DNA of 64,000 nt, taken from assembly GCA_973895155.1 (NCBI GenBank), contig OZ316894.1, positions 2,558,457-2,622,456 of the forward strand, written 5' to 3'. This DNA comes from Marsupella aquatica. Lineage: Eukaryota > Plantae > Marchantiophyta. The stretch's first letter is position 1, and each line of letters starts with the position of its first letter. The notes beneath the pieces were generated by a model, which saw only the letters and a list, made by a program, of their open reading frames with translations, did no database searches and had not been told where the DNA came from. Both the position numbers and the translations under genes were made by a program. Shown here one piece after another: positions 1,027-64,000 of the stretch.

Positions 1027-1027
1027 G

Positions 1028-1385: not shown

Positions 1386-1387
1386 TC

Positions 1388-1570: not shown

Positions 1571-1602
1571 AGACCACAGCCAAAAGGAGGGCTGAAGAAA
1601 AT

Positions 1603-10315: not shown

Positions 10316-10330
10316 CAGTTCTTCTTGAAT
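10316..10330 (-). other. Putative self-priming primer-binding site
   Basis: cagttcttcttgaat (10316-10330) is the exact reverse complement of attcaagaagaactg (10472-10486) inside a1; no TGG-type tRNA PBS follows a1. Confidence 0.7.
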
Positions 10331-10685: not shown

Positions 10686-10689
10686 TAAT

Positions 10690-15019: not shown

Positions 15020-16339
15020 TCTCCCCCCTCCTCTCCTTTAATGCAATTTAGGCCTAGTGCCCTGGCAAAAGACTCCCGTGAGAGGAGTCGAGTGTACTCC
15101 CCTCCCCTACTTCAATGTTGCTTAGGGCCTTGTGCCCTCTCTTGGCACTCGCTCCCCCTCCCCCTGATTTAATGCTTCATAGGTCTCCGTGCTTGACTGC
15201 CTGGCAAAAGGACTCCTGAGGGAAGGAGTCGTATGTACTCCCCCCCTCCATTTAATGTAGCATAGGGCCTCGTGCCCACTCCTTGCGCTGCTGCCTTGGC
15301 TCTATCTCCCCCCTATGAATGCTGGCAACGGAAGGTCGAGGCCTGGAACGAGGTCTGGAGGAGGCAAAAGAAAACCGGGACCCCCCTTTAAGACAAGGCA
15401 CGATGTCCTATGTGCGGGAGGACTGGAAGAGAGAAGCTCGAAAGGGTGGGCGTGCGGCCCTATGCGCGCCCAGGGGCAATTTAATGAATGTCGTATTTGT
15501 ATACACAGGCAGGACTGAGCTCACAATAATAATTGCAAGGGAAGGCGAGAAGAAACAACGGCCGGGAAGAAAAATTGGGTGGCAGCAGGTCACGATCGGA
15601 AAAAGGCAAAGCAAACGGACCCGTGGCTCTGTGCGCTCGGGAGGTAGTCGCGAGGTGATCGCACGGTAGTCGAGGGAAACTCGCCGGCAGCCATGGCCGG
15701 GAATGCAAAAACAACCCCAAAAGCAGTCGAGGCAGCAAGCGGCCGTGACAATAAGAAGGAGCAAAGGGGTCACGGATGCAACCAGAAAATGAAATCCAGA
15801 CCTCCTCGAGAGCATTGATATGTGTATACACTTAAGTATACACATAACAACATAAACCCACAACTTCCAACTCGTCGCTCCGATGTTCGTTGAAGAAATT
15901 GCAATGATTTCACCAGAAATTATCAAAACCGCCACAAGCAATCTTCTTCCCCTCACTGCTATCTCAAGAGTTCTTCTTGAATAAAAGGCGTAAGAGAAAT
16001 AAGTGTACTGAAATCAAATCAAAAACTGGCAAGATGCCAAGATCGGCCGGGAGCATCTAACGAATCACTGTGTGAATCCCGTGTACGGAACCGACAAGCA
16101 TTGTTTGAGCTCTGTCAATAGCGATTCAAGAAGAACTGAAAAATGGCAAAGAAAAACATGCCCTAAGTAGGACCGGGTCTAGGCATCACACTAACAAACA
16201 CCTTTGCTTCAAGAACGGCCCAGACTCGCTACAAGAACATGACACTAACTCAAGTAGTACACTAGCCCTAACTACATACCTGGCAGGCATGCAAGGGACA
16301 TGCCGATGTGCACAAGAGGCATTGTCCCTCGGCATGACA
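15020..16339 (-). mobile_element. Second, truncated copy of the split-LTR Gypsy family (a1 plus 5' UTR only)
   Basis: 15981-16339 is repeat a ending ..gcatgaca; parts of 15020-15980 resemble 9535-10328; the self-priming inverted repeat is retained (15969-15982 / 16124-16137). Confidence 0.88.
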
Positions 16340-21600: not shown

Positions 21601-22461
21601 TGTTCCAATGGGAAGAATGAAGTTTCAAAAATATCCAAAATTGCAACTCCAACGTTGTTTGGGCCAAGGGGTTCCCCGTCAACAACCCCTCCTTCATAAG
21701 GAACAGAAATCACACCTCGAGCAAGGAGATCTTGGCGATCTTTGGAGAATAACTCGACGTGCTCACCCATCCAGTCTGAACGAAGGACAAAATCCTTTTG
21801 CTTTTTGTTTGTAGATCCTGACAACAATTCTTTATTGAGTGACTTTGGCCCTCTGGGTTTGTGCCCCTCCTTCTAACATTAACTAAATCCCAAATCACCC
21901 ACGTGTCCTTTGCCTCAGCAACGGTTTCAGCTCCATCATGGATATAGGGCAAAGGGGCGGATCCATCATAGATCTCATTTATTCGAACACTAATCCGACC
22001 TTCTCCAAGAATGTCATTGTGACAATGATCAGTTGGGGACATCTTGAAAACAAATCCATTGGAGACATGCCGACCTGAAATGAGCATCTCCACCACATCC
22101 CCTTCCAAAAGTCTGGATCTATCTGTAATAGCTGTTGTATCAGTTACTGATGTTTGCCAATTGTCTACTATTGGATATGCAAAACCTGCAACATCTTCCC
22201 TGTTTGGACTAGTGTCACCATGTAGCAAAATAGATGACCTCTCCCATAAAACACAACATCAATTGCATCGTCAAGCTTGGTTGCCATTGGTGTTGGAACG
22301 GGAAGGGTGCGAGACCCCTCAATGGTCTTGAGAATCAAAACACCAATTCTTGATTCTCCAATCGTAATCTTATGCACAATATCAGCTGGATCCGTTTTCT
22401 GAACAATTCCAATTCCAACTTCATATCCATCAATTGTTAACATGACTTTGTCCCCACGCAA
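18671..22461 (-). pseudogene. Sola-like DDD transposase with three N-terminal repeats, fragmented
   Basis: CCKLKC..VCREAFYTIHGFS; FAKCNLC; CIIHDKMDQAK; LQMDNSGKDNKN; FLMVGHTHEDVDALFS; several frameshifts and stops. Confidence 0.8.
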
Positions 22462-24167: not shown

Positions 24168-26768
24168 CTGTAGAGGCAAGTGACAAATGACTCGAATGAG
24201 CTCCAACTAGGAGCTTTATGCACTTGCCTCACAACAATCGATCAAGATTAGATGATAAGGGAAATCAGCTCGCAATCAACCTCTTGGACCATTCTAACTA
24301 AATGCGCCATTTTTCTGACAAGCTAGCGATCACCATTATTCAAACTCATGCATTTTATTGGAATGCTTACCACCACCGGGGCCGAAGGCATCGGAACATC
24401 ACTGGAATTTTTAAATCTCCAACTAGCTAGCTAAATATTGGGCCACCAAGCCAACTGTCACCTGCTTATCAAACGATTTACACGACAAATACATATTTAC
24501 TTCTACTAAAATTGTTTGTTATCGTATGACGGGAACGTGGAGGGACGCTATTAGGATTCTAGTGCATGTAGAATGAGTATGTTTATTTCCGCTCCCAGAA
24601 ATGTAGTTTTTGATCAAGTCTACCGACTAGCCGCTCTGCTTTTGATCAAGTCCCATGGACTACGCCACACACACACTCCTATTGGTCGCTGGTGGAGTGC
24701 TGTCACCACCCCCCTACTCACATGGTCGACCAATCCGTGCAAGTATTCTTTAGACACTTCTTGGGGAAAGAACACAATCGTGAACCAGAAAAGATAACGC
24801 CACACCAAAACTTGAGGAATCAAACCAAATCCATAGATATCTTTTGGCAAAACGTCGTAACATATTGCAAGGACAACCCGGCCTCTTGCCGTCTGCTGTC
24901 ACGCGATTGACATGGGTCTTAACACCAAAAATGTCACTATGGGTGCCAAAACCATCTCTTTGTACCTGAGGATCACGAAGGGATGTTGTAAAGGCCGGTG
25001 AACACCAATTTATGCCCTTAACACCAGACTATCATAACAAGACTCCGTCACACATCACCCAAGCTCAATCCCTAAGAACCAAGGTTGGGAATCAGATCTG
25101 CGCTCATGATAGTTCTGGTGAGAAGGGGCCTTCATATCGGGCCCGTACACACAGGGCCTAGCGCTATGGTGTGCATAGGTCTATACGTATGCTTACTGTC
25201 ATAAGGATGTTTCTATTCCGCCGCCGGAATATACCCATAAACCAGTGACTCCTGACTGATTCCCGACTTAGGGACTTCTACGCCATTGCCCCACCACTCT
25301 GCCATTCCACTCTCAGCAATCAGAGCTATGACAGTCCTCACCTAGCCCGCTTCAATGCACCCTGTACACCTCTCAGTGGTGCTGCTAGTCCCATCATACA
25401 CTCAGATTGCCTCACACACACACACATCCATGAGAGAAATGAGGCCTAAGAGGAAAACTCAATTAGATTCAACGATGTGCACAATAGTTCACTGAGAACA
25501 CTTGATCCGAACAATAGGCCCGAAGGCTCTCTACTCCAGATTGCGACGTGCTTGCCATGCAAGCTCAATCCTGAACCTGAGCCCGGCTCACTCCAGATTG
25601 TGACGGCAGATTGGACTCGAACCAATCCTGTACTTGCCTTGCAAACTCAATCCTGAACTTAACCTCCTTCACTGCACTTCATTCTTGGGGGCACATACAG
25701 ATCTCACACCTCCAATTCAGAACGTCAAGTTATGCATGCACAGTTGACTCGACTTCAAAGCTGGTACCAGGCCTAACAACGATCTATCCCAGACTGCAAT
25801 GAGGCCCGGCCTCACGCTTGCCCTGCAAGCTCCGCTCTGGCCATAGATCCCTTAGTGCTCTCCACCAGACAAAGGCCGGGACTTCCCATGGATCACGTAG
25901 CCTTGCCAGACTGAACTGTAAATGCTCCTCTTGCTGCCCCTCAATCAGTGTCTCAGCCTCCCTAATGTGCTCACCACAAATCAAATTGACATCCTCCCCA
26001 CAGTTTACAATCGCCAATACATCACCTATCACCAAGGCTCTGTATCGGGGGAAAAGAACCCAGTTGTGCTGCCCACTAGAAAGAGCCACAATCCAACTCG
26101 CAAACCTAGCAACTCGTTGCTATGAAGCTTGGCTGATTACTCCCTAAGTAATAGCACAACCAAGCTCTCCCCAACACGCAGTGTCCAAGTCCAGCCTTGC
26201 TTGCACAGAGCTCCTCCCTGCTGCTCAATCTAATTGAGATCACACAACTGAAGTCCCCCTGCCTCTACCAGGGGCTGCTCTATATACTCTCATACTGAGC
26301 CCAAATGGGTGGATACTACGCTGCTGGAGCCCCATCCCAGCCCTAACAGAGTCGCCACTATCTCTAACTACTGAACCCTAACTCGCAACTTTATTTCTAT
26401 CTCGAATTGGCTATGTACTTCGGATTCGACCCTCCTCCATGGTTTTTGCGAGCTTGCGCCTCCTCTCCCGATTTCTCTATTCAACCATTTGCTGCGTGGA
26501 TAGCAGCGTTGGAAGCGGCTTGAGCTCCTCTTTCCAACGAGGTCAATTATAGCCGATTTGGTCAAATACATAGAGAGTTATGCCCCCGCAACCGAGAGGG
26601 GGTACTCACTGCTGCGCTAACCCGAGTTTGGCTAACCTAGCTATCCTATCTAACCCGAGTAGAGCTAACCCGTGGTCTCGGGTTAGGCCGCTACCCGCTA
26701 TCCGCTATCCGCTAACCTAGCCTAAGCTGAGCCCGAATCCAAGCTTACCTATGCTAACCTGAGGCCGC

Positions 26769-26915
26769 GCTGACCTGAGCTAAGCTGAAGCCGTGCTGAC
26801 CTGAGCTAAGCTGAAGCCGTTCTTACCTGAGCTAAGCTGAAGCCGTGCTTACCTAAGCTAAGCTGAAGCCGTGCTGACCTGAGCTAAGCTGAAGCCGTGC
26901 TCACATAAGCTAAGC
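26769..26915 (+). repeat. 26-bp tandem repeat (~5.5 copies)
   Basis: gctgacctgagctaagctgaagccgt units start at 26769, 26795, 26821, 26847, 26873 and 26899 (partial). Confidence 0.9.
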
Positions 26916-28075
26916 CGTGGTCGAGCTTGGGTTAACCCGAAACTGAAGCCGAATCCGCTAATTCCGGTCACAAGTTAACCCGTCACACTAATCAGGCCGT
27001 ATCTTTCTTAATACACCTCCGTTTCTCGAGTGTTTTATATCGATTTTATTCGCCTTGACCAGATCTTTCCAATGCTCTTTACAGATCCGGATTTGGTGAC
27101 ATATTGAAAGAGATATGGTCATCGACCACCCGCGATATAGCTTTTATTTCCCTACTCTTAACGTCATGATTGCCCTTATTCTTGCCATCTTGCTAATTGT
27201 TATGCAATATCAATAACTACTCCTTGCATACAGCGACCTACTTAATCAGATTACAAAATAAGGACCATGTCATTGGCGTCACAACTGCCCAACTACTGCC
27301 TCACTAGGGCAAGTGCTACACCTCTACCTCACTACTCTGGCTTGATTCCCTCTTCTGGCTATGAGCTAACTTCCCTAAGCAAACACTAGACTGAGTTCCC
27401 CCCCTCATTACTCCGGGGCTCTCCCCCTAGATACCAAGAAAACACACCAAAGCACCCCTCACGGGGCCACAACGATGGCGGCTTACCCTAGCGGCGCCGC
27501 TAAACCCTTCACTAAGAAGCCCCCAAACTAAAAGCATGCGGCACACACATGCTTCTAAAACCCTAAACCCTAAACTAACAATGGGGCCGACGGTGCCTTC
27601 GACGGCACCCAACATTACTCCGTGAACCGTGAAATTGCAAGGAACCCCGCAATGGCCGAAACTAGGCGCCCATCCACTTGCACTTCTGAGTTCACCCCTG
27701 GATAGCTCTCCTCCTCCTGAACATGACGCACTCAACCGCTCTTGAAACGGACATCGGACGACCAAGTTATGGTCGTTTCAGTATCCCGTAAACCCAACTT
27801 CGTCGGGCCCTAACCTGCTCATCCTGGCTCTGTTTGAGGAGCGCTGCCTCTTGTTGGAATCAGCTCCGCGAGCCCTTTCCAACAAGCCCATGAGTGACCC
27901 CTCAAAAAAAAGTTGGAAAGTTAAGGGGCCGTACAACCACGTCCTCCTCTTCACTCACGGTGCCCTAGCTTGAGCCCCGTGAGTGGGCCTCCTCATCACT
28001 CCACTGGAGTGAGTGCCACCTCACTCCTCTTCTTCTTTACCGGGGTACTCCTTGTGCTAGTGCTCCCCTGCTTCC

Positions 28076-31895: not shown

Positions 31896-31945
31896 GCTAG
31901 TTCATTTGAATTTCATGATCCAAGAGAGGATGCTAGGTTGGAAGA

Positions 31946-34900
31946 ATGTATTATTGTCACAGTGTCTTTTGGTTGTCAATGTTTTCTAAACTATTTGTGA
32001 CACAATGTGATTCTATTTCAAACAAAAAGTGGAGACACATCAAAGTGTCGGAACCGGTGACGGAGACAGTCAAGATTCTTGGAGTGCGTGAGAATAGCTT
32101 CGAATGGGCGTTGGAATTCATGACAGACGTGAGCTCTGGCCTTCAAATTCTTTGTGCAAAGTTGAAATCTCCCGGGCTTGATCCTCTTATTCCGGTTGGT
32201 CTTGGTCCGGTGGTCCGAGTCTCAATCCCAAATGGCAATGAGATTCATTGTACAGCAGAGAGTCAAGAGAATAAGAAGTGGATTTCTTTTACGCTACCAA
32301 TGAAGAAATACTCTTACAGCTTGAATGCTGATTGGGTTGGTCGTGGAGGAATCAGTGTGGTTGGGATGGGTTTATTTTCGGATGTCTGTACTGCTAAATC
32401 AATGTTAGAAGGAAATTGCATGATACAAACTGCGGCCGACATAGTTCTTGGATTTGACTTCCTGGCGTACTTTATCCAATCAAATCCTAATATTGTAACA
32501 AATCCAAACACTTGGCGGCTGGAGAAGTTGGTGAATAGCGCTGGTCTTGCTGACCGTGCTTTCAAGGTTTTTCTCAAGGGTGACTTGGTTTTTTGTGGTT
32601 GGGATGACAAGAAGGCTCGACGTTGGATTTCTACTTTGAAGAGCACACAGGTCGTGGATAAGCCAGGAAGTAGTTCAATCCCAAACCGGAGAACACTGAA
32701 ATTGTCAGGTGGAACCAATCCTTCTTCTCCGGAAAGATCTAAACCAGAGGAACTTAGGCCCATCCATTCCACTGTACCCGATCACAAGAAGTCTACGGTT
32801 AATTTGGTTCTTGGGAAAGGGAAGAGCATTCGATCAACTGAACCAAAAATTATTTTGAGTTCATCTAATGAGACCAATTCAGATGGTGGCAGTCTCAACG
32901 AATCGGATGAGAATAACGATGACACATCTGAGGAAGATGATTCAGACACTGAGGCAAGTGAAGATAATGGTAAAGTTACTACAAAATGCAAAGCAAAGCG
33001 AGCGAGGTCAGATTACTCAGAGGAGGAGGATGAAGTCAACACAAAGAAAAAGAAGAAAAATAGTCAACCCTCCACAAGAGTTTCGCGGCCTGCAAAAGAG
33101 AAGCGGCCAGCAACAGAGAAGAAGGCACGGGAGCCAAAGCCAAAGATGCCAAGGAAGAAGCGAGAGCCAAAGGTCAAGAACCCAACTAAAAAACAATCTT
33201 CACTTGAGAAGATGGCCAAAAAGAGGAAATCAGAGAAGGAGAACGCTTTCTGTAATTACCGCTACAAAAGGGATGATTGTGACGTATGAGGGGATGAAGG
33301 GCCAGCAGCAGCGCCTTTGGAGTCAAAGGTTAGAGAGTGTAGAGAGGTTTTGGATACGCTTGAAAAATACTACACATTTGGTATGGATGAGATTTTTCAA
33401 GGACCTGTGGATCTTATTGTCCCTCCACCAGCTCGACTTTGCTATTGAATGATAAATAGGGAGCACGTGAAACAGATTGCCGACTCCATGGTGGAGAAGC
33501 CAGGGCATCAACCGCATGTTGCTGATTTGATTGCCTTCTCACCAACAACAAAGAAGTTGGTTCATTTTGAGAACACTAAGGCAGATAGGAATGATTTTTT
33601 AGGAGCCATTGCAAAAAAGGAGATTATGTTCTTTGCAATTAGTGGGCAGCATTCAGCACGGGCGGCTCAATGGATTCAAGGCTGGGCTAAAACTGACGCA
33701 AAGCTCACAAATATTGCAAAGAATCTCATGCTAAGGAAAGCAAGGATTTTGTCGGACACTACGCCATCAGCAATACTTGCTGAGCATTCAAGCAGATCCA
33801 ATGCAATCAATGAGGCCATGGAGTTCAAGTCGTGTTTCCTAGAGACTGTCTTACATGCAAGAAGACAGTTTGTGGAGATGGGTCGTCCTCCAAAGCCCAT
33901 TGTTGGTTCCAATCAGAAAACTCATAACACACGATTTAATGTGAGTTTTCATACCCTTCTTGAGGTCAAAAACAATGTTTTAGACCTGAATGTTTCTATT
34001 GATCTCCATATTTTCATCAATCTTGGTGGGAGGGGCTATACGGGATCAACCCTCTTTGTTTGTGATCTATCTAGTTGTCAACTCTAACAATCCAATTTGT
34101 TGTGTTTCTAGGAATGGGCAAAAGTCGCAATGCACACACTGAACCGAGCATCATTGAAACAGATGTATTGGTTGATTCTTGCTGATGACAATCTTTTCAT
34201 TCTTTGGAAGAAGGTATGTCAAATGTGGCTTGACGGAATCCTTCCAGATGGTGCTGGTGAGACTGGGAACAAAAGAGCAGGGAAGACAATTACTCCTGCC
34301 CCTTTCCGTTGTTTTGAAGGAGATGTGAGTGCATAGGAAATTATTTCAATTTTAAACTCTGTGGCGAGTGGACACTTGCTTCTCAAAAAAGATGCGACTA
34401 ACAAAAGTTTCATTTCCACAATGGGAGAGAAGGCACATACAATAAAGATATTGAGAAAGTTGAAGCTGCACATTATCCAGATCCTTGTGGATAAACACCC
34501 TGAGACCTTTGCACCGACGGCCACATGGGGCTCTGCAATTAGCATTTTGCCAGCTTTGGAAAAGCCAGGTGAGTTGGATCGATTGTGGTGGGCGGCTGGA
34601 GAAGTATTTCTACAAGGGTTGTTAAAGAAGGGTGCTGCAAAGGAGGATGTTCCTCAAAGTCTTGTGTTAAGACTTGAAACCCTCTATTGTGCACGGTTTG
34701 GTGGAATTGCCCGAAAGCGAACAGAGCCTTTGTTGCTTTTTGGAGTGAGAACTTGATGAAGACCATCAAGCCAGATGTCTTTGAGGAGATTTCTCCACAA
34801 TGTCCTCTTGCAATAGTGGATTTTAGTCGAGAAAGGCAAAGGGACTGGACTGATTCCGAGCTTTTGGTTTTCTTCAACTATATTTTGGAGTAGTCTAGAA

Positions 34901-36740
34901 ATTCGACAATTGTTGTAGTGCTGATAGCCCTACCTGGTATGCTTTGCACAAATATTGTGCTTGCACTCAACATGCTTCGAAGGGAGAAGAAAGTGAGTGT
35001 CCACTACGAGTATGGCAGCTATTCCACGGCACAGGGGCCCCAGCCGAAGGGAACATTTTGGGATGGTGCCCAAGAGCAAGTGATATTTGCTGGGCTTTCA
35101 AGTGATGAGCAAGTTTGGTGGTGAGATATTTTCAAGCCGCAAGCACTTGTGCCCACTTTTTACTATAGTGAGAGTCAAGACTGTGATTTTCTTATTCGGG
35201 ATAACAAGTGTCACAAGTCAGGAGGGGAGGAGGAGAATGTCGCAGCAAACGCTGTTCAAGGGCAAAACAAAATGTCACCGTCTAATGTGCTCAAGATTAT
35301 TGAGAGTGCACCAACCTATGAAATGGTTGGTCATAAAGGAGGTTTTGTGAATCCGACTGGCAAGCCCCAACGGATGATTAATGAGATCTTGAAGGCACTC
35401 TCCGTGCCAGGTGATACAATTCTTGATTTTTTTCTGGAGGCCAAGTTCTTAAATGTTGTTTACTGTCTGCAAGAGAGTGTTTTGTATATTCGGACACACA
35501 AGCAGAGTTTGATTTCACGCAAGCATATGCAAGGATGATATATGAAGACGTTCCATCAATCAAAGCTTCATTTTGTTTGCTTCCATCAAATGATGATAGT
35601 TTACGTCATGAAGATCTTGGGCAAGATTATAATCTTGCTACTTCAATTCTTCCTGCTCGACCGAGCGTTGGTGCTTTGGTTTCACAAATTGCAGATTACA
35701 CAAAGACTCTGGTTGAGAGAGAGACTATCGATGGAGAGGTGATGGAGTCATGGGATGATGCAAATGCTTTTTGCTTGAACGGTGCACAAACAACTCCTAC
35801 TGCCCCATGCCCACCAAGTGCACGAAGCAGTCACGGAACAGGAGGCCTTGGGGCTGATCTATTGGTGGAGCAAATTCCCAAAAATGTTCTTGGAGGAACG
35901 CTTTCGTCAACGGCGGATGCAGGGTGGGAATCTTCTAATCCACTTTTGAGTGGTGAGTATCCTGGACGTGAAAAGACTGTTGGAGGTCCCATTAGTGGAC
36001 TTCAAGGGGATACTCAGGAGAGACATCCGGAACATAATCAAGATGTCGAAGGAAATGTTACATCTCCAGTTGTCGATGGATTTGGTACAATAAGAGGACA
36101 ATTGGAAGAAGGGGAGATTGGAAACCGAGTGCATCATTTGAGTGATGATCTCCTAACTCCAACAGGCCCACGGGATTGTCCACAGATTCAAGCTATGGTG
36201 GAACAAGTGCATGTGAAGGAGAACAAAGCACCAAAAGTCCCACCAACAAAATTGGTAGAGATGGGAACGACTCAAGGAGAGAAGAAAGTACCACCAGTGA
36301 TTGCAAAAGGTGGCCCGATGGATGCTAAGACGTCCAAGAGTGGCACTCTTCAGGCAGGTGCATCCATTTCTTCCACGTCTCCTAGTTATTGTTCTTCAAA
36401 TGACAAATTGGTTTTCATGTCTAGCTCTACGGGCAGCCCTGTGGTCCTACTACGATCAAAAAATCCTGGAAAGACTCTAGGAAAGACAGGGTGGGTCCGT
36501 GAACAGGCCGAGTGCACACATTTCATCTGGATAGATGGACCTAAAAAAGGAGAGATTGTTTCAAAAAAAGATGCTACTGGAATATTGATTGATCCTGAGT
36601 ACTTAAGGAAAGGGAACAAGTTGCAACCAGTCTTTTCAAAGCCAACTTATGTTAATGAAGCTCCCTCAGATGTCAACTATGAGCTTCAGAATATGCTAGG
36701 TGAAGCAACCATCGATGAGTATGGGTCTTTTAGCATGTAA
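31946..36740 (+). pseudogene. Multidomain ParB/Srx-like + beta-class N4/N6 DNA-methyltransferase-fold protein (disrupted)
   Basis: PVDLIVP..CY(R)MINREHVKQIADSM..FAISGQHSARAA (ParB-like); NPTGKPQRMINEILKALSVPGDTILDFF[SGG] (motifs X-I after restoring one T in T7 at 35427-35433); intron GT 33941 to AG 34111; five in-frame TGA/TAG stops. Confidence 0.72.
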
Positions 36741-36988
36741 ATGTACACTTGTACATCCTCTAAAATCCATTTTGAACTCATTCGTTAACAGAGGTAGATG
36801 AAGAGATATCAAGTGTGAAGAAGCAGTCACGGCCAAAACTATGCAATTCAGAAGGTATTTGGTGTGGTCATTTATTGTTTTGTCTGTTTTTTTGATGAGT
36901 TTGTCGATGGCGTCGGCTCATGACCCTCTTTGGTTCTTTATTGGTTATTCGGTTTGATTTTGATATCAAGTGATTTGACATCTTACAG

Positions 36989-37764
36989 AACTTGATTGGG
37001 ATCGCATTTCCAAAATATCTCCCTCTCCGATCAAGCGAAAGCTACTAATATTGGACCTGAACAAAGTATTGTGTGACACCACAATTCTTTGGCAGCAAGA
37101 CCATCCACCATTTGATGTCAAGGCTGGTGACCATGTGGATAGGCGAAAGGGTGGTACCTATGTTTATACAGAACGCCCCGGACTTCATGCATTTTTGGAG
37201 TTTGTTTTTGAAAAATATGATGTAGGCATTTGGACTTCTGCGAGCAAATCTCGTGCATCTCGGATGATGAAGATTTTGTTCACTACTCAAGAGAGGCGTC
37301 AATTGAGATTTATTTTTTGTCAAGAAGATACAACTGACGCATGCATCTTAAGACCAGATGGGAGATGTAATATTTTTATGAAGGATTTTCAGAAGGTGTG
37401 GAGAAAGTTTGGAAGTTTGTATGACGGTTCAAACACCATTCTCATTAATGACTCCCGATGGAAGGGATTTCTTAATCCCAGTTGGACTCAGTTAATCCCT
37501 AGTGCATTCACGCGAGAAGAAAAGTTTGACAATTTTCTCATGGTAGTTTTGGCACCATATCTTCACAAGTTGACACTGGCTTTCGACGTTCGACTTTTTT
37601 TGTTTGAGAATCTTCCAAAGTGGTCGTATTTTGAGACGGTCTGCGTTGTCCTTATTTTGCTCGGGAGAGGAGAGGCAGGCGCGGGGAGGGAGGCAAGGCA
37701 AGTCGTGACTAAACGGCTGCCAAACGGTCATGGGATAACGTTGGCTCCCTGGCCGGATGTGTGA
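36989..37764 (+). CDS. HAD-superfamily NIF/FCP1-type phosphatase domain
   Basis: KRKLLILDLNKVL, ERPGLHAFLEFVFEKYDVGIWTSA, KDFQKVW, NTILINDS; starts after the acceptor ttacag at 36988. Confidence 0.85.
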
Positions 37765-40700
37765 CGACCAGGGTTTCGGACGTCCGCACACTTTTGGTGG
37801 ACGACCATTTTGGGCCTTAACCAGGCAGCCCGTATGGGCACGCAGGCAAATAATTGAGACCCCTTAATGTAAAAAACAATATTCATGGCAGGAAAGAGAC
37901 AATTAGAATATTCATAAAAGTAATTGAAAGTGTTTCTGGTTTTGGAAATGATTCCAATATGTATGATATAGTGCCACTCACATTTTTAATTAATTTTACT
38001 TTTAATTTTAATAAATTAAATATATTGATGTAAAGTGTGTACTATTGGAGGGAAAAAAATGGACATTTGGGTCCAAAAAGTGTACATGTGAAGAGAATTG
38101 TATGGATATTTTGATCCAAAAAGTGTACTTTTGGGACTCAACTTTTGGATTTTCAATTGTTCACTTTTAATGAATAGTCTGATCTGGGTGCTGGGTTTGA
38201 AATTGACTTTGTGTTCAAAAATGTACACAAATGACTATAGGAGAAAGGTAACCGGGTTGCAACTACAATACATTACTTAAAATTGTCTGACACATCCGCT
38301 CTTTCAACTTAAGAAATCCATCGCCCTTTGAGAAATGTAAGCTAATTTCAAAATCCTTCATCCTCCGAGAAGTGTGCGCTGTTTCCAAAATGTTAGGCAG
38401 CAATCCGGAAGTATCAATATATTGTTCTGCTGTGTGAACTTTTGATGGACTTTCACATCAACCTCTGACTGACACCATGGCGTCTCATCAAAGAAACCCA
38501 TAGTACCTATGTGCATAATTAGGTCTGACGACTCACTTTCTCTATTTCTAATTTTCCATTGCCCTCAAGATCAAGGCAGTCCAATAGAAACAAAGCAATC
38601 TCACGAACATTCCAGATTGCATGCAGAAAGATTAAATAATAGAAATGACCAAATTGGCCACAATCAACCGAACAACAGTGAAAGTGGACAAATATGTTTT
38701 ACTAAGTGATAATAGTACACTTGGTAAGCATGGTTTGTCACGTTTTGTTTTCTATTGCAAATTTGATTTCTCCCCTTGTGTAATTCTAGTGGTTCAATTA
38801 TTTAGCTAGACATCATTTGACTGAGCAAATATTGTTGGGAAGTTGTAAAACCTAAACTTGAACACACTCCTCTCTACTACACATGACTTCTATGTCTATC
38901 ATTCCTACTTAGACCCTACATGCATCTCACAATGCCAAAATTCAAGCAGATTACCTTAAATTTGAACACAATGCCACATTTTGAACACAACGCCACATTT
39001 CTAACACAGGGCCCAAGTCCAAAAAATGAAAACATTGACTTCAGACTCAAACACAGCGCCCACCTTGGCTCACTATTTGAATATAGTGCCCGGGCCTTGT
39101 GTTCAGGGGAAGATGGTAGGCCAGTAGGGAGCCACCTTGGCTAATTTTGAAATACAGAAAACATGGCTGGTTGGGACCTTTCTATTTTATCTAGAGTAAT
39201 TTATATCTGTGCATGTATGGACAACAAAACTGAAACTCCCTAGACCATGTTTGACAAACTGCTCAGATGGACCATTGAAACTGGAAGGAGTGGTCTTGAA
39301 ATGGTATTTTCGCTCAGACAACTTGATTTTTTCTTTCTATCAATGCTCACTTCTTGGCATCAAGAAGTGCTCAGTTATTCCTTATCCTTAGATCAAAGTT
39401 GGTGGTCCAGCCAAGCATCAACTTGATAGAGGAACTCTTGTCACCACATACCAAATTATAATAGGACCTTAAGCGACTTGGGAATGATTCACAAGACAAA
39501 GTTGGAGTTGGAAGCTTGATAGTGTTTGTGGTGTAATATTTTAAGGAAAAAGTGAAAGCCTCCTCCCCACTAAGTTTAGGTATGTGAACTCAGTGTGCAA
39601 AAACTCTAGAACTCAACACTTCTAGATCAGGCATGAAGGAAGAAATATATGAAGGGCTTTAAAAGAAAGTTTGTGGAAAAAGAATTCCTTGTGAACCAGT
39701 CATAGATCAAGTTGCCGAGGTCCATAATCCAAGTTCTTGAGCTGTGCCATGTGGATTTAAACTAACAATCCACTTATTTCATGAACTCAGTTGCAAGGCG
39801 CATAATCTCAGTAAGACATTGATGTATCTACAGCAAAACCTTGTGACCATCACTAGATGTAATCCATTAGTACAGGTTTTTTTCCCATTTAGCTTGTAAA
39901 GCTTTTGACTTAGACACAAAAACATTTCAGTATCACTAGGTTTAAAGGAGAACTATTGCATTGGGCAACTAAACCTTTTAATTAGATAAGACTTGGCAAA
40001 TGAAAGGTGAAAATCTCAATATTTTTCTTCATATGAAGGAGCCACGGCATGTTCCAAGTACGGTTTAGGCAAGACTTTACCTAACAAATGGCTGGTGTGA
40101 ATACAACTTTTCAGGACCAATTTCCATGGACTGAAAACTTCTTTGATTCTTAGTCAGTCAAAGCAAGATTACTCATGAATCGAAATCAATACTGTATGGA
40201 TAACTTTGTGAACTGCTTCAACAATGGACTTTAGTGATCATATATTTGACAGACAGCGGCCTAACTACTGGTGTCAGCATTTGTGACACACCACTGGGTA
40301 TTCAGGCTGGTAGTTCTGCCATCTGTATAGGCTTCATTGCCGTGCCACAGGAACTGATCAGAAAGTTTCCAATGGCTGGCCAGAAGCTCTAGTTATGAAG
40401 ACAATTTGTACATGGATGCAACTGAATGTTTGAATGCTGTGTGGAAACACTAGGCTCATAGGAACAGTTTGGAGATGCATGCTAATGAATTTTTTTCAGT
40501 CTGCCTGGAAACTCTAGTCTTGAGTTTTTATTTTAAGCATTGTGCATAAATTTATCTTTGGCATTTCCTGGCAATACTCATAGTTAGTTACTACTTTCCT
40601 TGAAGGCTCATAGAATTTTGAGTCTCATTTGAGTGTCTTGTCTGGACAGCAAATTTTAACCATGTGAGGACGTTTCAGTGTTGAAATGTAGTGTTTCATA

Positions 40701-49300: not shown

Positions 49301-50280
49301 TGTAGGTTTGTTTCTAACCCAACTCCTTCAGTTGAATGAGAACAAAGGCTGCTAAATGAACATTACTCCAGGAATCCACTGAATTCTTTCTATTGTAAGC
49401 CAAATGCATGTTTACATGTCATCTCATCTCTGGAACAAACGTGTTAAACAGGTCTTGAGACTAACCTTCAATTTGTCAGTTGAGGTGGATATGCTCATCC
49501 AAGTTTCCATTTTTGGTTGGCAGGCTATCAAATTTGCCATTTGTTTTTCAACGTTCAGATCAGTCTTTCTTACTCACCCAGAACGCAAAGATAACCTCAT
49601 GGTTCGAGAATTGGACAGCATTTTTGGAGCTGTATTGAGTTCTGCGTTTTGTGCTTCACGTACCTTTCAGCACTTGATCTCTCATTGTGTTGGATCATTG
49701 TTGGCAAGTACTTGTTGGCTCAAAACTCTTTTTTCTTATACCACTTCTGAATATCATGCTGCACCATATAGAACTCTATGGACGTAATGCTCTAGCATTG
49801 AACCTGATCACGCTATCTACATTCAAAGATAATTTGTCTCGTGTGTGGAATTTTCGCATCTATCAATCCCTTGCTATGGCTTTTACGGGGAATCTCGATG
49901 ACAGCAGTAGCAGGGGTTCAACTTGTAGGATTTCTAAAGTAGAATATGGTGAGCGATGAGCTCGGTGCCCGATCGGGGGTGGGTACCCTGGATCAGGCCT
50001 GTTGAGCATAATCTCACTCACTTGGATTGTGATTTGGAACAGGACAATGCCGCATGGCTTAAAGGGTGTTGCTCGCTAGCTGGCGGGCAGTTTCTTTGGA
50101 GAAGATGCAAGGTCGGATGGGTTTTGGCTTTTGTCAGATATTTGTCGACATCTCATGTAAGGGACAGCCTATGTAGCATAGTCGTGAACGCAGTCCTTAT
50201 TTGCTTCAACCAAATTTGGGTATGATTGAACAAAGTGCGAGCTTGAATACTGTATGTTGTGTTTCACGTTTACCACTTGA

Positions 50281-50403
50281 AAAACAACTGATTAGGATTG
50301 CTGCTGAGAAAGCAAAACAATAAGTCCGTGTTGGCCTAAGAGAATCTCATTGGCAAAGCTCATGATAGCAACCCAGATGACAGGGGCAACATCTACTACT
50401 CCG
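50281..50403 (-). repeat. Tandem duplicate of the CCB3 3' coding end
   Basis: Encodes VDVAPVIWVAIMSFANEILLGQHGLIVLLSQQQS* versus the gene's ..LGKQGLLVLLSQQQS*. Confidence 0.9.
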
Positions 50404-50415
50404 AGAAACAACTGA

Positions 50416-51551
50416 TTAGGATTGCTGCTGAGAAAGCAAAACAAGAAGTCCCTGTTTGCCTAACAGAATCTCATTGGCAAAGCTCATTATAGCAACCCAA
50501 ATCACAGGGGCAACATCTACTCCCCCGACGGGTGGTATCAGTCTCCTTGTAGGCCCAAGCACCGGCTCAGTGGGAATATAAGCCAGAAAAAAAGGGAATT
50601 TCTTGACCGGAATTCCTGGGTACCACGACATCACAATTCGGAAAATGAACAAAAGGTTGAAGATGGTGATAAAAGGACCAGCCAAACTGGTAGCTAGCTG
50701 AGCCGTCCCTGGATCTAAGTCACCGAGAATCGACACAAAGCGGGGGAGCATCTCCATAGATAATGAATGAGAAGGGATGGGATCCAACTCCGTAGCAGAT
50801 GCACTCGAATCAAATATCGACAGTCCAAAAGCTGCGCAACCAGCACTAAATCCAATTCGTGTAAAGCTATCGTTACCAAGGTCTTCCCCATCTGGCTTGA
50901 CAGTGCAATTACACCTCTGAAGCATTTTTCCAGAATCAGTCCTCCCGAGTGATCCACCATGGCGAACAGCTACTCCATCCTCAACCCTCATCCCATGCGC
51001 TACAGGAGGATGGGTTGTTTTTCTCCTCGTGGACCCTAGAGTGGACACTCTGCAGGAGTACATACAAAATGATAAGCCATTGCAATTTGAACAGGACTTA
51101 GGGTTTGCCAGAGGACCTATTAGTTCTTTGCTATTGCTTGAGTAGGAGAGCAAGAAGAAAGGGGCCAACTTGTAAGATTCCTCGATCAGGATAAGGAGCG
51201 TGATATGTGTGCTCAGAAGTTGGTATACAAAAAACAGGAAAGGTTGCTCTGCTACCTCACGGAACTACTTCCAACCTTCTCACCTGATTACTCCATGATT
51301 ACTGACTCAACTAGACAGTCCACACTCATGACGCACCTTGGAGACTTGAACGAGGAGGACTCCCCTCCAGTGAACCCTTCGCTTTCCAGGGCAGCTGAAG
51401 TTCCGGAGGAACGCCGTGATTGCCGCAGATGAAGAGAATGCCATTTCAAGGTCCGTGAGTTCAACCCGGATTTCTTCAATGACGGGGCCCCCAACCCATT
51501 CCTACAGAATAATTCCGCTCCCATGCAAGCGCAAAGCAATTGAGTCGCCAT
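50416..51551 (-). CDS. CCB3: Chloroplast cytochrome b6 heme-attachment factor CCB3 (YGGT family), 2 exons
   Basis: Exons 51551-51337 (transit-peptide-like) and 51049-50416; DLDPGTA..LFIFRIVMSWYP..PTEPVLGPTRRLIPPVGGVDVAPVIW. Confidence 0.9.
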
Positions 51552-52129
51552 CCCAGTGTCTGAGATCACCTGGCCTCCTCCGTCGTGCAAGTTTTGGCCA
51601 GTCAGCCGGGGCCCCTTCTCAATCACCTTCCACTCACAACACCATCATCGTCAAACCTCGTGTATAAATTTGCTGCTACAATAGTCGAAGCTGGCCTGTC
51701 TGAGAATGGATTCTCCTGTCTGAGAATTCGACCGCTCCAGAGTCTCCAATCTGAGAATAGATTCTCCTGTCTGAGAATTCGTTCTGGCTGCAATTGCAAT
51801 TGCTCTGGGGATGCTCTGCTCCTTCGCCCTGTCTCATACGTAGAGCCTCGTTGTCCTAGAGTCTTCACCTTTGAATAAACAGTGCTGGACGGGGGACAGA
51901 AAACCCACTCACCAATCGATGATGTTGAGCAACTACGCCATACCTCGCCTCATCTCCGTTGTTCTCCTCCCTCTCCCGAATCCCAACACTGTTGATCAAT
52001 CCGCCAATCAATCACTCACTCACTCTCTGGCTATGGTACCAGTCCAATCATCCACTCTCTCGCTATGGTATTACATGCGAGAGTCCATTCAGATTTCCGA
52101 AGGAGAAGGTCGGCCCAGCCCCTTAGTGT

Positions 52130-52710
52130 AAGTTTAGAATGAATGAGCTTCAATAAGGTCAAAATTTAAAATGAAGGGCCTACAGTAAGTGTAGAGTGAA
52201 TGAGCTTCAATAAGGTCAAAATTTAAAATGAAGGGCCTACAGTAAGCGTAGAGTGAACGAGGTTCAATAAGGTCAAAAATTAAAATGAAGGGCCTACAGT
52301 AAGTGTAGAGTGAATGAGGTTCAATAAGGTCAAAATTTTAAATGAAGGGCCTACAGTAAGTGTAGAGTGAATGAGATTCAATAAGGTCAAAATTTTAAAT
52401 GAAGGGCCTACAGTAAGTGTAGAGTGGATGAGGTTCAATAAGGTCAAAATTTAAAATGAAGGGCCTACATTAGGTGTAGAGTGAATGAGGTCAAAATTTA
52501 AAACTAAGGGCCTTCAATAGGTCTAGAGTGAATGAGGTTCAATAAGGTCAAAATTTAAAACTAAAGGTCTACAATAGGTCTAGAGTGAATGAAGTTCAAT
52601 AAGGTCAAAGAGCAGGTGTAGAGTGAATGAGATCTAGAGTGAATGAGATTTCATAAGGGTCAAAGAGTAGTTCTAGAGTGAATGAGGTTCAATAAAGTCA
52701 GAATTTTAAA
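52130..52710 (+). repeat. 57-bp tandem repeat (~6 good copies, then decaying)
   Basis: gtagagtgaatgag.ttcaataaggtcaaaatttaaaatgaagggcctacagtaagt at 52191, 52248, 52305 and onward. Confidence 0.92.
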
Positions 52711-56941: not shown

Positions 56942-57923
56942 CTACTTTTGCTCTACTCCCTCTTCAACGATGGTGGCCTTCTCGCTCACGTAAATACCAT
57001 CCAAAAACTTCCGGATATCCTTTTTCTTTACGTGACATTTCTGCATTAAGGGAAACAAACAAGAAACCAAACAGCAATTGAGAATCTAAACGGAGACGAT
57101 ACACGCTGTTACCCACATCGACCTAATGGACTGAAAGTAAACCAAAACTGAGAATATATAGTATGCACTGAATTGAGAAATCAAACTTCAGATTGTGACG
57201 AGGAAGCACCTGGTTAATTAAAGCTGCGGATCGAGAAACGAGCTCGATGTCATTACCCTCCAGCACAAGCTCATCCTTCACCTTCTCAGACCTCGTTACC
57301 GTCACATTGGAAAGCATATCCACCCTACGAACCTGACCACACCAACAGTAAAAAATGAACACAGATGCAACTTCGTTGTACGGTTCTTTTGACGCAAGAA
57401 CAAGCTCCACAACTTTTGAGTTGCCATGCTTCAAAATATGCACCACTGCTTTTGCTACAGAGGAGACCGACTCGACACTGTCGTCATGGCCCTATTTCTG
57501 TAGTTGGGCGAAACTTGAAGTCAATAAAACAGGAAAAAACCGCGTGCTACCCACGCATACCTTCTTCTCGCCCAGAAAGTTGCGAATTTCAATGCTGTTC
57601 TTCTCGTTCGAGATAGAAGCGTTGATGGGAAAATGAGCATACACGAATCTCATCTTGTAGCGATAACCCTTGGTCACGCCCGTGATAAGATTGTTGACAT
57701 GGCTGATAGCGGTGCGAATCGCAGCAATTGTCTTCCTCGACCCGAACCAGGCATCCACCTTCAATACCTTGCCGCCTTCGATCAGCTGGAAATCAAGGTT
57801 GAGATGTTTGAAATTCCTCTTCAGTACCCCGCGGGGCCCTGTTACACGAATTTGCTTCGCCTTGATCTCTAACTTGACATTTTCGGGAATGTCCATAGTC
57901 TCGGTTGACAAAATCACCTTCAT
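56942..57923 (-). CDS. RPL9: 60S ribosomal protein L9 (uL6), 3 coding exons
   Basis: [38 protein letters not shown] (57923-57561), [16 protein letters not shown] (57332-57210), [21 protein letters not shown] (57040-56942). Confidence 0.97.
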
Positions 57924-58269
57924 CTTGGCTGCTGCTGCTGCCCGATTCCTGCCTGGAAATCGAAAGTCGGGTTCAAGTCCTGATGGACTTGCCTGCCTCA
58001 GCACAGGCAACGAGGTTCGAGGCGATGGTGGTCGAACGAGGAGAGGAGATCAGAAAGGCAGTGTGAAAGAGTCGAAAAAGGGAGAGACGCGAGCAATGTC
58101 TCGACTCAAACCCTAGAATAGAGTACCCTAACCCCAACGGCCCAGATCATTCCTGATACGGACGCCCCAGATCACATTTGCCATGTTCTCCAGCGATTAT
58201 ACAGCGGACATATAGATGAATCCTGTGGACTGGTAATAACGTCTGTTTACTGGGTATTAGCTCAATACC

Positions 58270-59230: not shown

Positions 59231-60664
59231 TGAGTTTTCAAGGCACAACGTGTGTGCCCAAGGCAAGAGAAAAAGATACATAGATGTGCCAAGGTCTGTA
59301 ATTTTTTATTTTGAGGGAAGGAGGTGTGTGCCCAAGAAAGAGAGAAAGATGGGCAGTGGTAGGCAAAGGGCAAGTGCATTCCCTTGGGCAAATGCTAATA
59401 AGTGATTCTATTTGAGCTTTAAAAAAAATGGTGGAATGGCTCACCTGATAGTCTAATAAACAAGTTTAGTTTTGGCTTGTAGTCCCTGAAAAATATTACA
59501 CTTATAAAACTGAGGAATTGAGATGTAGACCATATGTTCTATGTTTGGACTTTGTGCCATTGTCCTCAGTTTTATAAGTGTGACATGTAGTAGCAATTCT
59601 ATGTTTGGACTTTTTGCCATTGTTTGCATAAAGCATTCATTTGTGTTGGAGGTGAATCCTAAGAAGGATAAATCTTCTCTCCTCTATTTCCTGGATTTCT
59701 TCCTTTTTTCTGTATCTTATCTCTATTTTCTCATATCAAAAGACCTTCTTTTTGTTAGTTGCTTTCTTATTTATTACTTTTGGCACTGCAACCATTAGAT
59801 TTTGAATGATGGCCACTCCAAAAATTGGTTGGATCTTGTATGATAGGTTTTAATTGTGAGCCATAATGCCCTCCCAAAAGACCCCATTTGAGGGGTCACT
59901 ATTGCTTATAATGAACCCTTTGTCATGACAAATCTATTCTAAATTTAGTGGCTTATGGTTGTGCTATGTCAGCAATTTCTAGCACCAATATAAATAGAGA
60001 TGCTTGTGGCGACAAACAAACACAATTGTTTGTATATTTTGCAACTCCAGCAAAACTAATTAGATCCATGAATGGTAAAAACTTAAGGAAATTGAACAAA
60101 CATGCCAAATACCAAAGAATGTAATAGCTTAACCATTTTATTTAATTTTTGGATTATAATATTTTATTGAATTTATTTTGTTAAAACTTACCAAGGACTA
60201 ACTTTAGCCATTAGATCTGATTGATGGAGGCATTTGAATGGTCATTGGCTAATAAAGATGATGCTGGAAAATATCATACAAATGGTCACCAAAAAAATCA
60301 TAGATCATTGAAGTTTTTAGATACAAATGAGATTAAATGTTTCTAATTAATTGTTACTGTGTACACTATTATCATGCTATTTATGTGTTATTAGGATAGG
60401 TTAGCATCCTAAGATGCATCAAAAGAATTTTCAGCCATAATTTTCTTGTCTTTAGTTTGGTTGGGGTTGAGATTTTTTATTTTTATCCAGCTTGGAGACC
60501 TACTTACTAAATGAATATCCCCAAAATCCCAATATAGATAAATCTAAATTTTTTGGGGGAAAAAATTGGATTTCTTCAAATATGATTAAATCAAATGAGT
60601 ACAAGTTCAAGCACAATAATATTGTGTTGATCAATAAATCACATAAGTCTAGATAACATATCCC

Positions 60665-60742
60665 ATGTCACACACATCCAATCACATACACAACACCTAT
60701 AAGAGAATAAGATACAAGTCTAACTCATGTCTACACATGTCT
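60665..60742 (-). repeat. Diverged relic of the second family's b repeat
   Basis: tgtcacacacatccaa..aagagaat..atacaagt..aactcatgtc.acacatgtc resembles 62244-62330. Confidence 0.65.
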
Positions 60743-61737
60743 AGTTCAGTTCTATTTTTGAGGGATAGTTATCCTTTTGTGATGACTCAAAGGATTTCAA
60801 TTAAGGATTTGATTACTTGTGAACAACCATCTCGAGGTTGGGCACTGTAATTTGGCAAGCAAACAAGGTAGGCCGCAGAATAATGCTTTACCCTACAAAA
60901 AAACTTAGAATTTAGGAGAACTTGAATCTAAACTTTTATAATTTCATAATAAATTATTTAAATATTTATTTGTTGATAACGTGAGACGTGACTTTTTAAA
61001 TTTTATTTTGAATGTAAAGTATATAGAATTTATATGTATGTAAATCTATATAAATTTGCTAAATGTTTTTGTATAAATTTCATATTACTATTCACAAAAT
61101 ATTCAGAATAAAAGCCAATTATTCGGGATACTTTCTGTAATCCTACTCCAAATATATGAAAACAATATTCCCACCATTGAAGGCCAGAACTAACATCCCA
61201 CAATTGAATCCAAGGTGGCTGAATTATTGTTCAAGCCATGGAGAGGCATGCCAACCAATCAGCCATTGTGGAAGCTAACATTGGGAGACTGGACCAAGTT
61301 GTGAAGCTTCCCAAATTCCTTAAACCCATTATCTCACTAACGTTGCTACGAAGGATGAGTTTACTAAGAAGTGACCTCATGTGAAAGGTTGGGTGGAAAG
61401 ACCTTTCATTCCGATGTCCTAGGAGAATAATAGGTGCAAGAGCTTGCTCCTAAGCACAATTTGTTGCCTTGACATTTGACAATAATTTTGGGTCATCTGA
61501 TTCCTGTGTCTATATGAGACTTCACAAAAATTTCCATGGAAAAACAAATCATAAAGACAAATGCAATCCCACATGTGAAAGCAGAGTTGTAAAAGCACAA
61601 TGAGAAATTCAATTTGATTGAACCTGTCATATACTTCATTTGTCCGTATTAAATTCTCTTTCAGCAGCCCAAAGACGCATGACTTTGTGGTAGTTCACTT
61701 GAATTAAGACTAATAGGTTTTGGGTTTAACTATTGTG

Positions 61738-64000
61738 TGTCGTGCGCATACATATCGCTACACAACATACATCGCTTGTCACATACATCCAAACATAGTC
61801 ACGCTGCCACATCACAAACACAAGAGAATGGAATACAAGTGGAACTCATGTCCACACATATCCAAAACCCACAATAATCTCCATACAATCGGCACAACGA
61901 TCCCGGTCAACAATACCCCATCGATCCCGCACCGATCCGATCACACACGTATGTCAAGCCAACACACCTTGCACTACTCAAGGAATCCACGTTACACAAG
62001 CGGAGCTCACAGCCACCATAGCCACTCAAGCTCCTCTCTCTCCAAGGCTCAACATTGAAAGATGACCTTTCAATGCCTCACAAGTGAGAAGTACCCTCTC
62101 ACACAAACCTGACGGAACCTTATCAGCTCCAATAGCACTCATACCAAACGTACATACTCTAATAGCACGATATACTACTATACTAATCAGAATGGTGTGA
62201 CAGCTGTCGTGCGCATACATATCGCTACACAACATACATTGCTTGTCACATACATCCAAACATAGTCACGCTGCCACATCACAAACACAAGAGAATGGAA
62301 TACAAGTGGAACTCATGTCCACACATGTCCAAAACCCACAATCGCCCCCCTAGCTGGGAGTAAGGTCCCCTAACTCTAGCTAGCCATGAGTTCTACAAGG
62401 TTGATATACACCTTTTTAGGTGTGAAGATCAGGAGGTCGGGTGCAAGTGAGCCCCATCGATCACCTACCTGCAATCCATATCTGCCAAGAGAACACAAAT
62501 GATAACTAGTCGGCTTCACCGACATTGAGGACACAACCATGATCCACTAGGAATCACCTGCAATGGTGGTGTCAAACATGACATGTGCCATCCTCTAGAA
62601 CACTTATCACAAATCAACATAGTAGCTGCTCCCTGAGCAGATCCACACAACATACATTTCAAGCCAGCACGAACATGTGCCAAGCTTGGATCTACTGTAC
62701 CATCAATGTTGGGAAGGTGACATGGTGCACAGTTGCGCACATGATCCTTCCAAACCATACCATCGCGTCCCTCCAACATCAGGACACTAGAAGGCAACAC
62801 TTCACGCACACGTAAGATTGTTCGGCCTGCGGTCACATCAAGTGTCGTGGGTGCTGTCTGCTGCAAATAAACATAATCACCATGATGAAATCGTCGAATG
62901 CTTGCACGGTAACCTCCTCCACGAATAGTGGCATACCTCAAAGTATCACGATGTTGGGCAATGGCAAGGTTATCAAAAGCCATGGGCATCACTCTCTAAA
63001 ATACCCGTGCTCTCTTTGAACACACCTTGACCCAAACATCAGGATCATCCAAGTTCACAACTGGTGCAGCATCACGACGAATAGCTGCTGGCAAATCTGG
63101 CTCTCTACCATAGAGCAAAAAGTAGGGTGAGAAGGATGCAAGTGATGCTTGCCGACTGAAACGGTAGCCCATAGCTAACCAAGGTAGTTGGAGATCCCAA
63201 TCTCCTAGATGACCAACCTGCAAGCCATACTTACGCAATCCTCTCTTCACAGTTTGCACAACTCTCTCAGCTAATCCATCTGCCTCAGGATGATCACGAG
63301 AGGTAGTACGATGATCAATCAGAGCTTGTTCACACAAACTCTCAAACTCTCCACGGAACTCAGTTCCCTGATCAGTCAACACCTCAGCTGGTGCTCCAAA
63401 ATGATTGAGTACACGATCCAAAAATGTAGCAGCAACTCCTCCACTGGCTTTATCTGGCAACACCACGAGCTCAATCCACTTGGAGAAGTGTTCTACCATG
63501 ACCAAAATATACCGATTATGGCGTTGGGTAAGAGGTAATGGACCAGCAAAATCCAAACTCCAACGATATCCCAAACCCATGATCGGTAACGGGTGCAACT
63601 GGGGAGTGGGAGCATTAAATGATGCTCTCACTCTATCACTTACCACAAACTTAGCTATCAACTGCTGGACATGAGTGTGCATATCACGCCACCAATATTG
63701 TGTCTGCATCAAGCTGTAAGTGCGCTTCACACCAAAGTGACCCAACTCCTCGTGCGCATGTCGCACCAAATGTACTCGTTGTGATGGTTTTGGTACCACC
63801 AACATCCTACCATCATGCAATACTCTTAAAAGATGGTTTCCCTCCCATCGAAACCTCTTGGCTCTCTGTAGAACCCTGTCACGTTCCTTGGCATCAACAC
63901 TGCCAATAATAGAATTACTGCGCAGATATTCCAACACTCTCACATCATTGTGAATATCTTGCTGTCCAGAAGTTACCTCACCAACATCCACATCTGAAGA
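61738..64000 (-). mobile_element. 3' part of a second Gypsy family with the same split-LTR end (b-a-b) and PHD-integrase
   Basis: b copies 61738-61875 and 62205-62342; intervening segment ends ..GTGTGACA at 62202, then gc; G-rich PPT 62343-62350. Confidence 0.9.
62516..63991 (-). pseudogene. Gypsy integrase plus intact C4HC3 PHD finger (one in-frame TAG)
   Basis: HEELGH, WSLDFAG, TDQGTEF, AERVV; CMLC..CDKC..H..C..WLCPQC; TAG at 62996-62998. Confidence 0.93.

Follow-up and report, generated by a model that had tools for sequence, protein, structure and literature searches.

Split B-A-B repeats at the 3' end of a Ty3/Gypsy-type retrotransposon in Marsupella aquatica and a possible internal attachment site for its integrase

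Introduction

Split repeats are already in print for a Gypsy retrotransposon of Klebsormidium nitens, KnitGypsy-Dnmt3, to which the legend of Fig. 4c in de Mendoza et al. (2018, PMC5890265) assigns DIRS-type repeats (A-coding region-B-A-B), Gypsy domains and a Dnmt3 domain in Pol; SymbioDIRS-Dnmt3 is given the A...B-A-B geometry in the same source. The element studied here occupies positions 61738-64000 of a 64,000-nt stretch of the genome of the liverwort Marsupella aquatica (GenBank assembly GCA_973895155.1, contig OZ316894.1, positions 2,558,457 to 2,622,456, forward strand), hereafter called the window, and is the 3' end of an old Ty3/Gypsy-type retrotransposon with split repeats in the order A - gag-pol - B - A - B. 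The layout is not new, KnitGypsy-Dnmt3 having been published with its mechanism unexplained, and the studied element is a land-plant-type addition, a confirming instance and not a discovery. A literature search from which subscription journals, Repbase and theses lay apart found no publication on this split-repeat Gypsy layout besides de Mendoza et al. (2018), and a 2026 preprint (10.64898/2026.05.21.726589) mentions streptophyte Gypsy-DNMT3 but, in its available portion, not the repeats.

The window contains two families of such elements, a complete one, hereafter called family 1, and that of the studied end, family 2. The A-coding-B-A-B repeats of KnitGypsy-Dnmt3 are shared by family 1 and by five complete related loci, and at the studied copy by its B-A-B end only; a C5 methyltransferase within Pol is shared by family 1 and seven family-2-like loci. 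The account of KnitGypsy-Dnmt3, in the consulted parts of the paper (PMC5890265), describes no termini, target duplication, priming sites or mechanism. The elements described here are set apart from that account by description, having a plant homeodomain (PHD) finger at the C-terminus and short forms with a single B. A K. nitens protein with methylase, reverse transcriptase (RT), RNase H and integrase (KFL_009030040, hereafter P0035) has 51 % identity over 387 aa with the studied integrase and 37 % over about 1520 aa with the family 1 Pol, P0035 not being confirmed as one of the elements named in the paper.

PAT-like elements, Ngaro and TOC1 are retrotransposons with split direct repeats and a tyrosine recombinase. 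The present elements have the split direct repeats in common with this DIRS order, but a DDE integrase, TG...CA ends, a 4-bp duplication and a purine tract instead. In the green lineage, the Chlamydomonas element Gypsy-7a_cRei (PMC9940879) also has a PHD finger but differs, according to its figure legend, in having two near-complete long terminal repeats (LTRs), and REM1 (PMC2774666), another green-lineage Gypsy element, differs in having an integrase given in the consulted account as truncated and reversed. Troyka was considered as a relative and rejected; its CG...CG ends, 3-bp duplication and animal hosts, as stated in the portion of its description available (PMC12440569), stand against the TG...CA ends and 4-bp duplication found here.

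Structure of the 3' end and its terminus

In the sense of the element the order is purine tract - B1 - GC - A2 - B2 - flank (Table 1). The two B copies form a direct repeat of 138 bp with 2 mismatches, separated by a 327-bp segment with GACA as its last letters and by a GC spacer (62203-62204), and the junction across the spacer reads GACA-GC-TGTC. The preliminary description had given the order as b, 327 bp, CA-GC-TG, b, purine tract and integrase-PHD, which is what is found, with the tract (sense AGGGGGG) lying 2 nt from B and not flush with it. Downstream, the minus-strand frames contain Integrase_H2C2 and rve domains and the PHD finger, with one stop between the two parts, and residues D149, D209 and E244 of the integrase are invariant across 30 aligned proteins. 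Only the integrase-PHD region and the B-A-B end of this copy are visible, its far end being beyond the window; from the spacing in two related loci (L003 and L007, see below) an A copy is predicted about 6.9 kb past the window.

In public sequencing runs, contigs continued past the outer B end into flanks that differ from one another (two runs with 19 and 26 such contigs, four runs with 20, 41, 38 and 44), and this end is therefore a real terminus of a multi-copy family. The flank-B junction of the studied insertion was present without differences in runs of two studies, one of them possibly the source of the window itself, and a 548-nt contig from another copy spanned the B|A joint. The far (A1) ends of the A repeat were not seen among the loose-end contigs listed from the public runs; one 97-nt contig departs from the window at 62202 and another stops there, a weak hint only. 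Searches of viral contigs gave no match in one case and a single distant match of 27 % in the other. No RNA data set was listed among those containing the sequence, which has no bearing on expression.

Two observations concern the surroundings of the insertion. The left flank (61670-61737) is matched by multi-copy contigs in the public runs, so that the element may sit inside another repeat, and a decayed remnant resembling the family 2 B repeat lies in the same orientation 1 kb to the left (60641-60741; local score 60, best of 300 shuffles 30).

Comparison of the two families in the window

The complete copy of family 1 (851-10685) is flanked by an exact target duplication, TAAT, at 847-850 and 10686-10689, and has the order A1 - 14-nt complement - gag - pol - G7 tract - B1 - 2-nt spacer - A2 - B2. 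Its pol includes a C5 methyltransferase (Pfam PF00145, E 3e-5).

The two families had been described beforehand as having unrelated repeats and homologous integrase-PHD regions, and their B-A-B ends as an independent recurrence that made the architecture a lineage trait. The repeats are no more alike than shuffled sequences, the observed score being reached by 39 of 300 shuffles for B against B, 281 of 300 for A against A and 131 of 300 for the whole ends. The integrase-PHD proteins are homologous, with 54.7 % identity over 479 aa, and a 306-bp stretch of their DNA aligns at 67 %. In a tree built from 39 integrase sequences, both window families, P0035 and algal proteins were separated from 3 long outgroups, with a support of 92 (unstarred) and an unresolved base. 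Because this tree and the protein identity point to a common ancestor, the two families are not independent origins; the lineage trait stands, on the evidence of the relatives, and the independence does not.

Survey of related loci

Seventy-nine loci encoding related integrases were retrieved from metagenome assemblies. Rows with the same flank were merged, which reduced 28 B-A-B rows to 23 distinct insertions, in three repeat families, and 20 single-B rows to 18; a further 22 loci were uninformative, the contig being too short or without a repeat match, and nine were partial or of other form (L012, L015, L016, L033, L042, L052, L054, L064 and L065). A full A-B LTR at the 5' end had been named beforehand as the case that would speak against the layout. 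It was found at none of the 12 visible 5' ends, ten of them distinct ends in the related loci and two in the window (family 1), all of which consist of A without B.

Five loci are complete, of the form A...B-A-B, and four of these have an exact 4-bp target duplication. In the eight loci with both ends visible the duplication is exact in five, has one mismatch in two and is absent in one; L007, which has the single-B form, has an exact one. The integrase tree assigns two of the complete loci, L003 and L027, to the studied family and the other three (L040, L066 and L067) to family 1. The two nearest relatives of the studied element, L003 and L027, have A alone at the far end and a 4-bp target duplication, as had been predicted for the studied copy, together with the self-priming complement treated below and a DNA methyltransferase domain. 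A methyltransferase is present in seven family-2-like loci (L002, L003, L004, L005, L007, L010 and L027), and the order protease-RT-RNase H-integrase in family 1 and in the family-2-like L003, L007 and L027. Proteins from Calypogeia have up to 73 % identity with those of the studied element.

The far end of the studied copy lies outside the window and the relatives come from metagenome assemblies, which leaves some room for an ordinary element with a full A-B LTR at either end, whose B-A-B end would stem from a local rearrangement, a nested insertion or an error of assembly. Such an origin is very improbable, given the 23 distinct insertions in three repeat families that share B-A-B, the 12 5' ends without a full LTR and the exact target duplications flanking the split form. 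Moreover, the two B copies differ by 4-13 % in the complete loci and are therefore separate genomic copies. For the clade as a whole the rearrangement is already contradicted, and the A...B-A-B layout is a lineage trait. Identities of 87-96 % between B1 and B2 and of 88-92 % between A1 and A2 in the relatives represent similar divergence, which suggests that both repeat pairs are remade at each insertion.

In several loci (L067, L070, L022 and L066) B ends in a 15-nt tandem unit, and B2 is one unit shorter than B1 in some copies, with the reverse in others.

Priming sites

In an ordinary LTR element the purine tract precedes TG and the primer site follows CA. In the split-repeat elements the purine tract adjoins B and a primer-like site adjoins the inner end of A, while the 4-bp target duplication flanks the start of A, with its TG, and the end of B, with its CA. 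With Ty3/Gypsy elements (Metaviridae) they thus have in common the TG...CA ends, a target duplication within the 4-6 bp of that group, a DD(35)E integrase and the protease-RT-RNase H-integrase order, but not the LTR layout, the tract and the primer site being at different repeats and no 5' end being A-B. Because the tract lies before B and the primer-like site after A, reverse transcription should make B-NN-A at both ends.

The primer-like site is the complement of a site within A and stands directly after A1. In 8 of the 12 5' ends, no more than 5 of 500 shuffles gave as good a match; the sequence of the site differs from family to family, and its target lies 163-203 nt into A. A transfer RNA (tRNA)-type primer site is expected to start with TGG, and none of the 12 5' ends has this start. 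A primer site directly after the repeat and complementary to the start of the element's own RNA is also known from the Tf1/Sushi and Tcn1 chromoviruses (Neumann et al. 2019, PMC6317226, as far as its relevant sections go), the likeness resting here on sequence from the same eight 5' ends. Those chromoviruses have two full LTRs and a chromodomain, whereas the elements here have split repeats and a PHD finger after the integrase; Pfam scans of the family 1, L007 and L003 frames gave no Chromo match. The survey of Neumann et al. (2019, PMC6317226), in whose text PHD is absent, required paired LTRs with TG/CA and a duplication, criteria by which split elements would be missed.

At about nt 135-185 of repeat A in L003 and L007, read by eye, a TATA-like box stands some 30 nt ahead of the self-primer; in L003 the predicted RNA start is enclosed by a short inverted repeat, and L007 has lost the self-primer arm.

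Spacer and joints

The spacer between B and A was 2 nt in all 27 related loci in which it was compared, and in 26 of them it was GC or a variant of GC by change of C/G to T/A; an overhang of this length is what a staggered cut would be expected to leave. The A|B2 joint was variable. Among 18 distinct family-1-like copies, classed by eye, it was blunt in seven, had a 2-nt overlap in five, was one base short in two and one base long in three, and carried a longer deletion in one. These classes were not clustered on the copy tree, which was made of 30 family-1-like rows (8 changes, against a mean of 9.3 after shuffling, with as low a count in 96 of 500 shuffles), as expected if the joint is made anew each time. 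The single-B ends were likewise dispersed across this tree, 370 of 500 shuffles giving as low a value. Two further ends, at L065:3510-3985 and L042:4373-4840, consist of tract-B-NN-A followed by unrelated DNA; they stop at the predicted end of the reverse transcript and have no B2.

Replication like that of PAT, Ngaro or DIRS elements would account for the repeats otherwise: the usual priming sites would have no part in copying the complementary DNA (cDNA), the internal B-A junction would serve only as the template from which the ends are restored, and the integrase would process ordinary linear ends. The repeat geometry is indeed that of the split-repeat DIRS elements, as given in the portion of PMC5890265 that concerns them. 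However, this route predicts an A|B2 joint inherited unchanged, and it leaves both the conserved purine tract at B and the co-varying self-primer site at A without a role. No Pfam match to a tyrosine recombinase was found in 22 frames of family 1, in 17 of 17 frames of L007 or in 13 of 24 frames of L003, decayed frames below 90-100 aa being outside the scan. The route is considered improbable.

One locus of a third lineage (L012:8545-9317) shows a purine tract, B, GT, A, the self-priming complement and a stretch like a 5' leader that seemingly wraps to the start of the contig. It was not counted as evidence of a one-repeat circle, a cycle in the assembly graph fitting equally well.

Proposed mode of integration

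The inserted ends probably derive from cutting by the integrase at the internal palindrome CA-GC-TG, and not from trimming of the reverse-transcript ends, these being joined or recombined. The RNA would start in the middle of A1 and prime itself, as in Tf1, and the standard strand transfers would then give DNA with permuted repeats, B-GC-A...B-GC-A. A 2-nt staggered cut by the integrase at the left B|A site would generate two processed CA-3' ends simultaneously. The two termini left over from reverse transcription, at the end of A2 and at the start of the freed B, would be joined to give A...B-A-B, either in a two-repeat circle prior to insertion or through repair after it. The short form A...B would arise if the two B copies annealed or if a one-repeat circle was inserted.

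Integrases of foamy virus and human immunodeficiency virus 1 (HIV-1) cleave palindromic LTR-LTR junctions, according to the consulted parts of two studies (PMC1180852, PMC1905944). Cleavage of retroviral two-LTR (2-LTR) circles, as presented there, shares with the proposal a DDE integrase that cuts an internal palindromic CA...TG junction to yield processed ends, but the retroviral palindrome arises only when the cDNA ends are ligated, whereas the present palindrome is a fixed part of the element's own sequence and lies at a distance from the predicted cDNA ends.

A further origin of B2 would be the RT itself, which could make this copy in a third jump between template ends, from that of A2 to the start of B, and stop at or near the B|A site, the integrase finishing predefined ends without host ligation or a free circle. 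The RT of Tf1 has clamp and untemplated-addition activity. Blunt, 2-nt-overlap and +1 joints are products of end-to-end jumps, and the absence of A-B-A...B (none of the 12 5' ends) would be accounted for. The left end TG-A would, however, still need an internal cut at the same palindrome, so that only the joining step and not the cut would change, and the jump alone leaves the 18 single-B ends unaccounted for. It is regarded as unlikely, although somewhat less so than the DIRS-like route.

Several points weigh against cutting at the palindrome with separate joining. All steps of the mechanism are deduced from the arrangement of the sequences. The mirror product A-B-A...B was not seen, against six complete A...B-A-B elements, though a circle with two equal sites should give both; a symmetric circle in which either site can be chosen freely is therefore unlikely. 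The self-priming match was not significant in four of the 12 5' ends (L007, which has lost the site, L015, L045 and L071). Joints were uniform in length in four of five family-2-like loci, and no insertion or deletion at the A|B2 joint reached 5 % in the public runs matched to the studied end. The variation that was seen falls within micro-repeats (AT and TTCAA), where slippage after insertion could have caused it, the copy tree has poor resolution, with 16 of its 27 forks open, and the single-B ends could result from later recombination or assembly collapse.

On balance, the view that in a whole clade of green-plant Gypsy elements the integrase attachment site has shifted away from the cDNA ends into a palindrome hard-coded within the element, and that integration as a rule proceeds by a staggered cut there with the reverse-transcript ends joined separately, is held slightly more firmly than it is doubted. 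The same joint claim implies that a DDE integrase of retroviral type would operate with a DIRS-like logic, in families missed by LTR finders. Whether joined-end or circular cDNA is a normal substrate of a retroviral-type integrase is a long-standing question, 2-LTR circles being mostly viewed as dead ends. The inserted copies appear to record such a route in their fixed cut site and variable joint, which makes the question testable in algae or bryophytes. Lacking paired TG...CA LTRs with a flanking duplication, the elements should be missed or misannotated by structure-based LTR surveys, and the group so missed would be abundant and methyltransferase-carrying.

Other features of the window

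Table 1 Features of the studied 3' end (family 2) and of family 1 in the window
Feature	Position	Strand	Basis
Left flank TGTG, predicted copy of 4-bp target duplication	61734-61737		Sequence; 4-bp duplications in relatives; second copy outside window
B2, terminal copy of repeat B, ends CA, 3' element end	61738-61875	-	Repeat comparison; varied flanks in public runs
A2, 327-bp repeat A, starts TG	61876-62202	-	Sequence
Candidate RNA start / self-primer inside A	62024-62036	-	Suggested by position only (A nt 174 vs 175 in L003); complement outside window
B|A palindrome GACA-GC-TGTC, putative integrase attachment site	62199-62208		Sequence; 2-nt spacer in 27/27 relatives examined
B1, internal copy of repeat B	62205-62342	-	Repeat comparison
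Polypurine tract, 2 nt before B1	62345-62351	-	Sequence; conserved in relatives
Integrase C-terminal part and PHD finger	62516-62995	-	Pfam PHD E 9.7e-12
DDE integrase (zinc finger and core), runs off window	62996-64000	-	Pfam rve E 1e-13, Integrase_H2C2 E 9.4e-12
Family 1 3' end: B1 1388-1563, spacer 1386-1387, A2 1028-1385, B2 851-1026, purine tract 1564-1570	851-1563	-	Sequence comparison
Family 1 gag and pol: CCHC knuckle, protease, C5 methyltransferase, RT, RNase H, integrase, PHD; stop-interrupted	1603-8964	-	Pfam scan of frames
Family 1 5' end: A1 (~10329-10685), then directly 14-nt complement (10316-10329) of A-internal site	10316-10685	-	Sequence
Another, older family 1 copy, 5' end: A alone, same complement after A	15981-16339	-	Sequence

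A long interspersed nuclear element (LINE)-like element with an RT match (10877-14881) lies between the complete family 1 copy and the older family 1 5' end (15023-16339), probably as a result of nested insertions. Two broken long frames (18950-22258 and 31937-37764), one with DUF7869 (E 1.6e-39) and one with a NIF phosphatase domain (E 4e-18), are both found inside a 41-nt inverted pair (17853-17893 and 38157-38197), possibly of a large DNA transposon. The translation of 50416-51264 is presumably a YGGT/YlmG-like membrane protein and that of 57492-58049 is taken to be ribosomal protein L9, both host genes. Tandem arrays are present at 52071-52710, 26709-26928 and 50279-50526, with units of 57, 26 and 124 bp, respectively.
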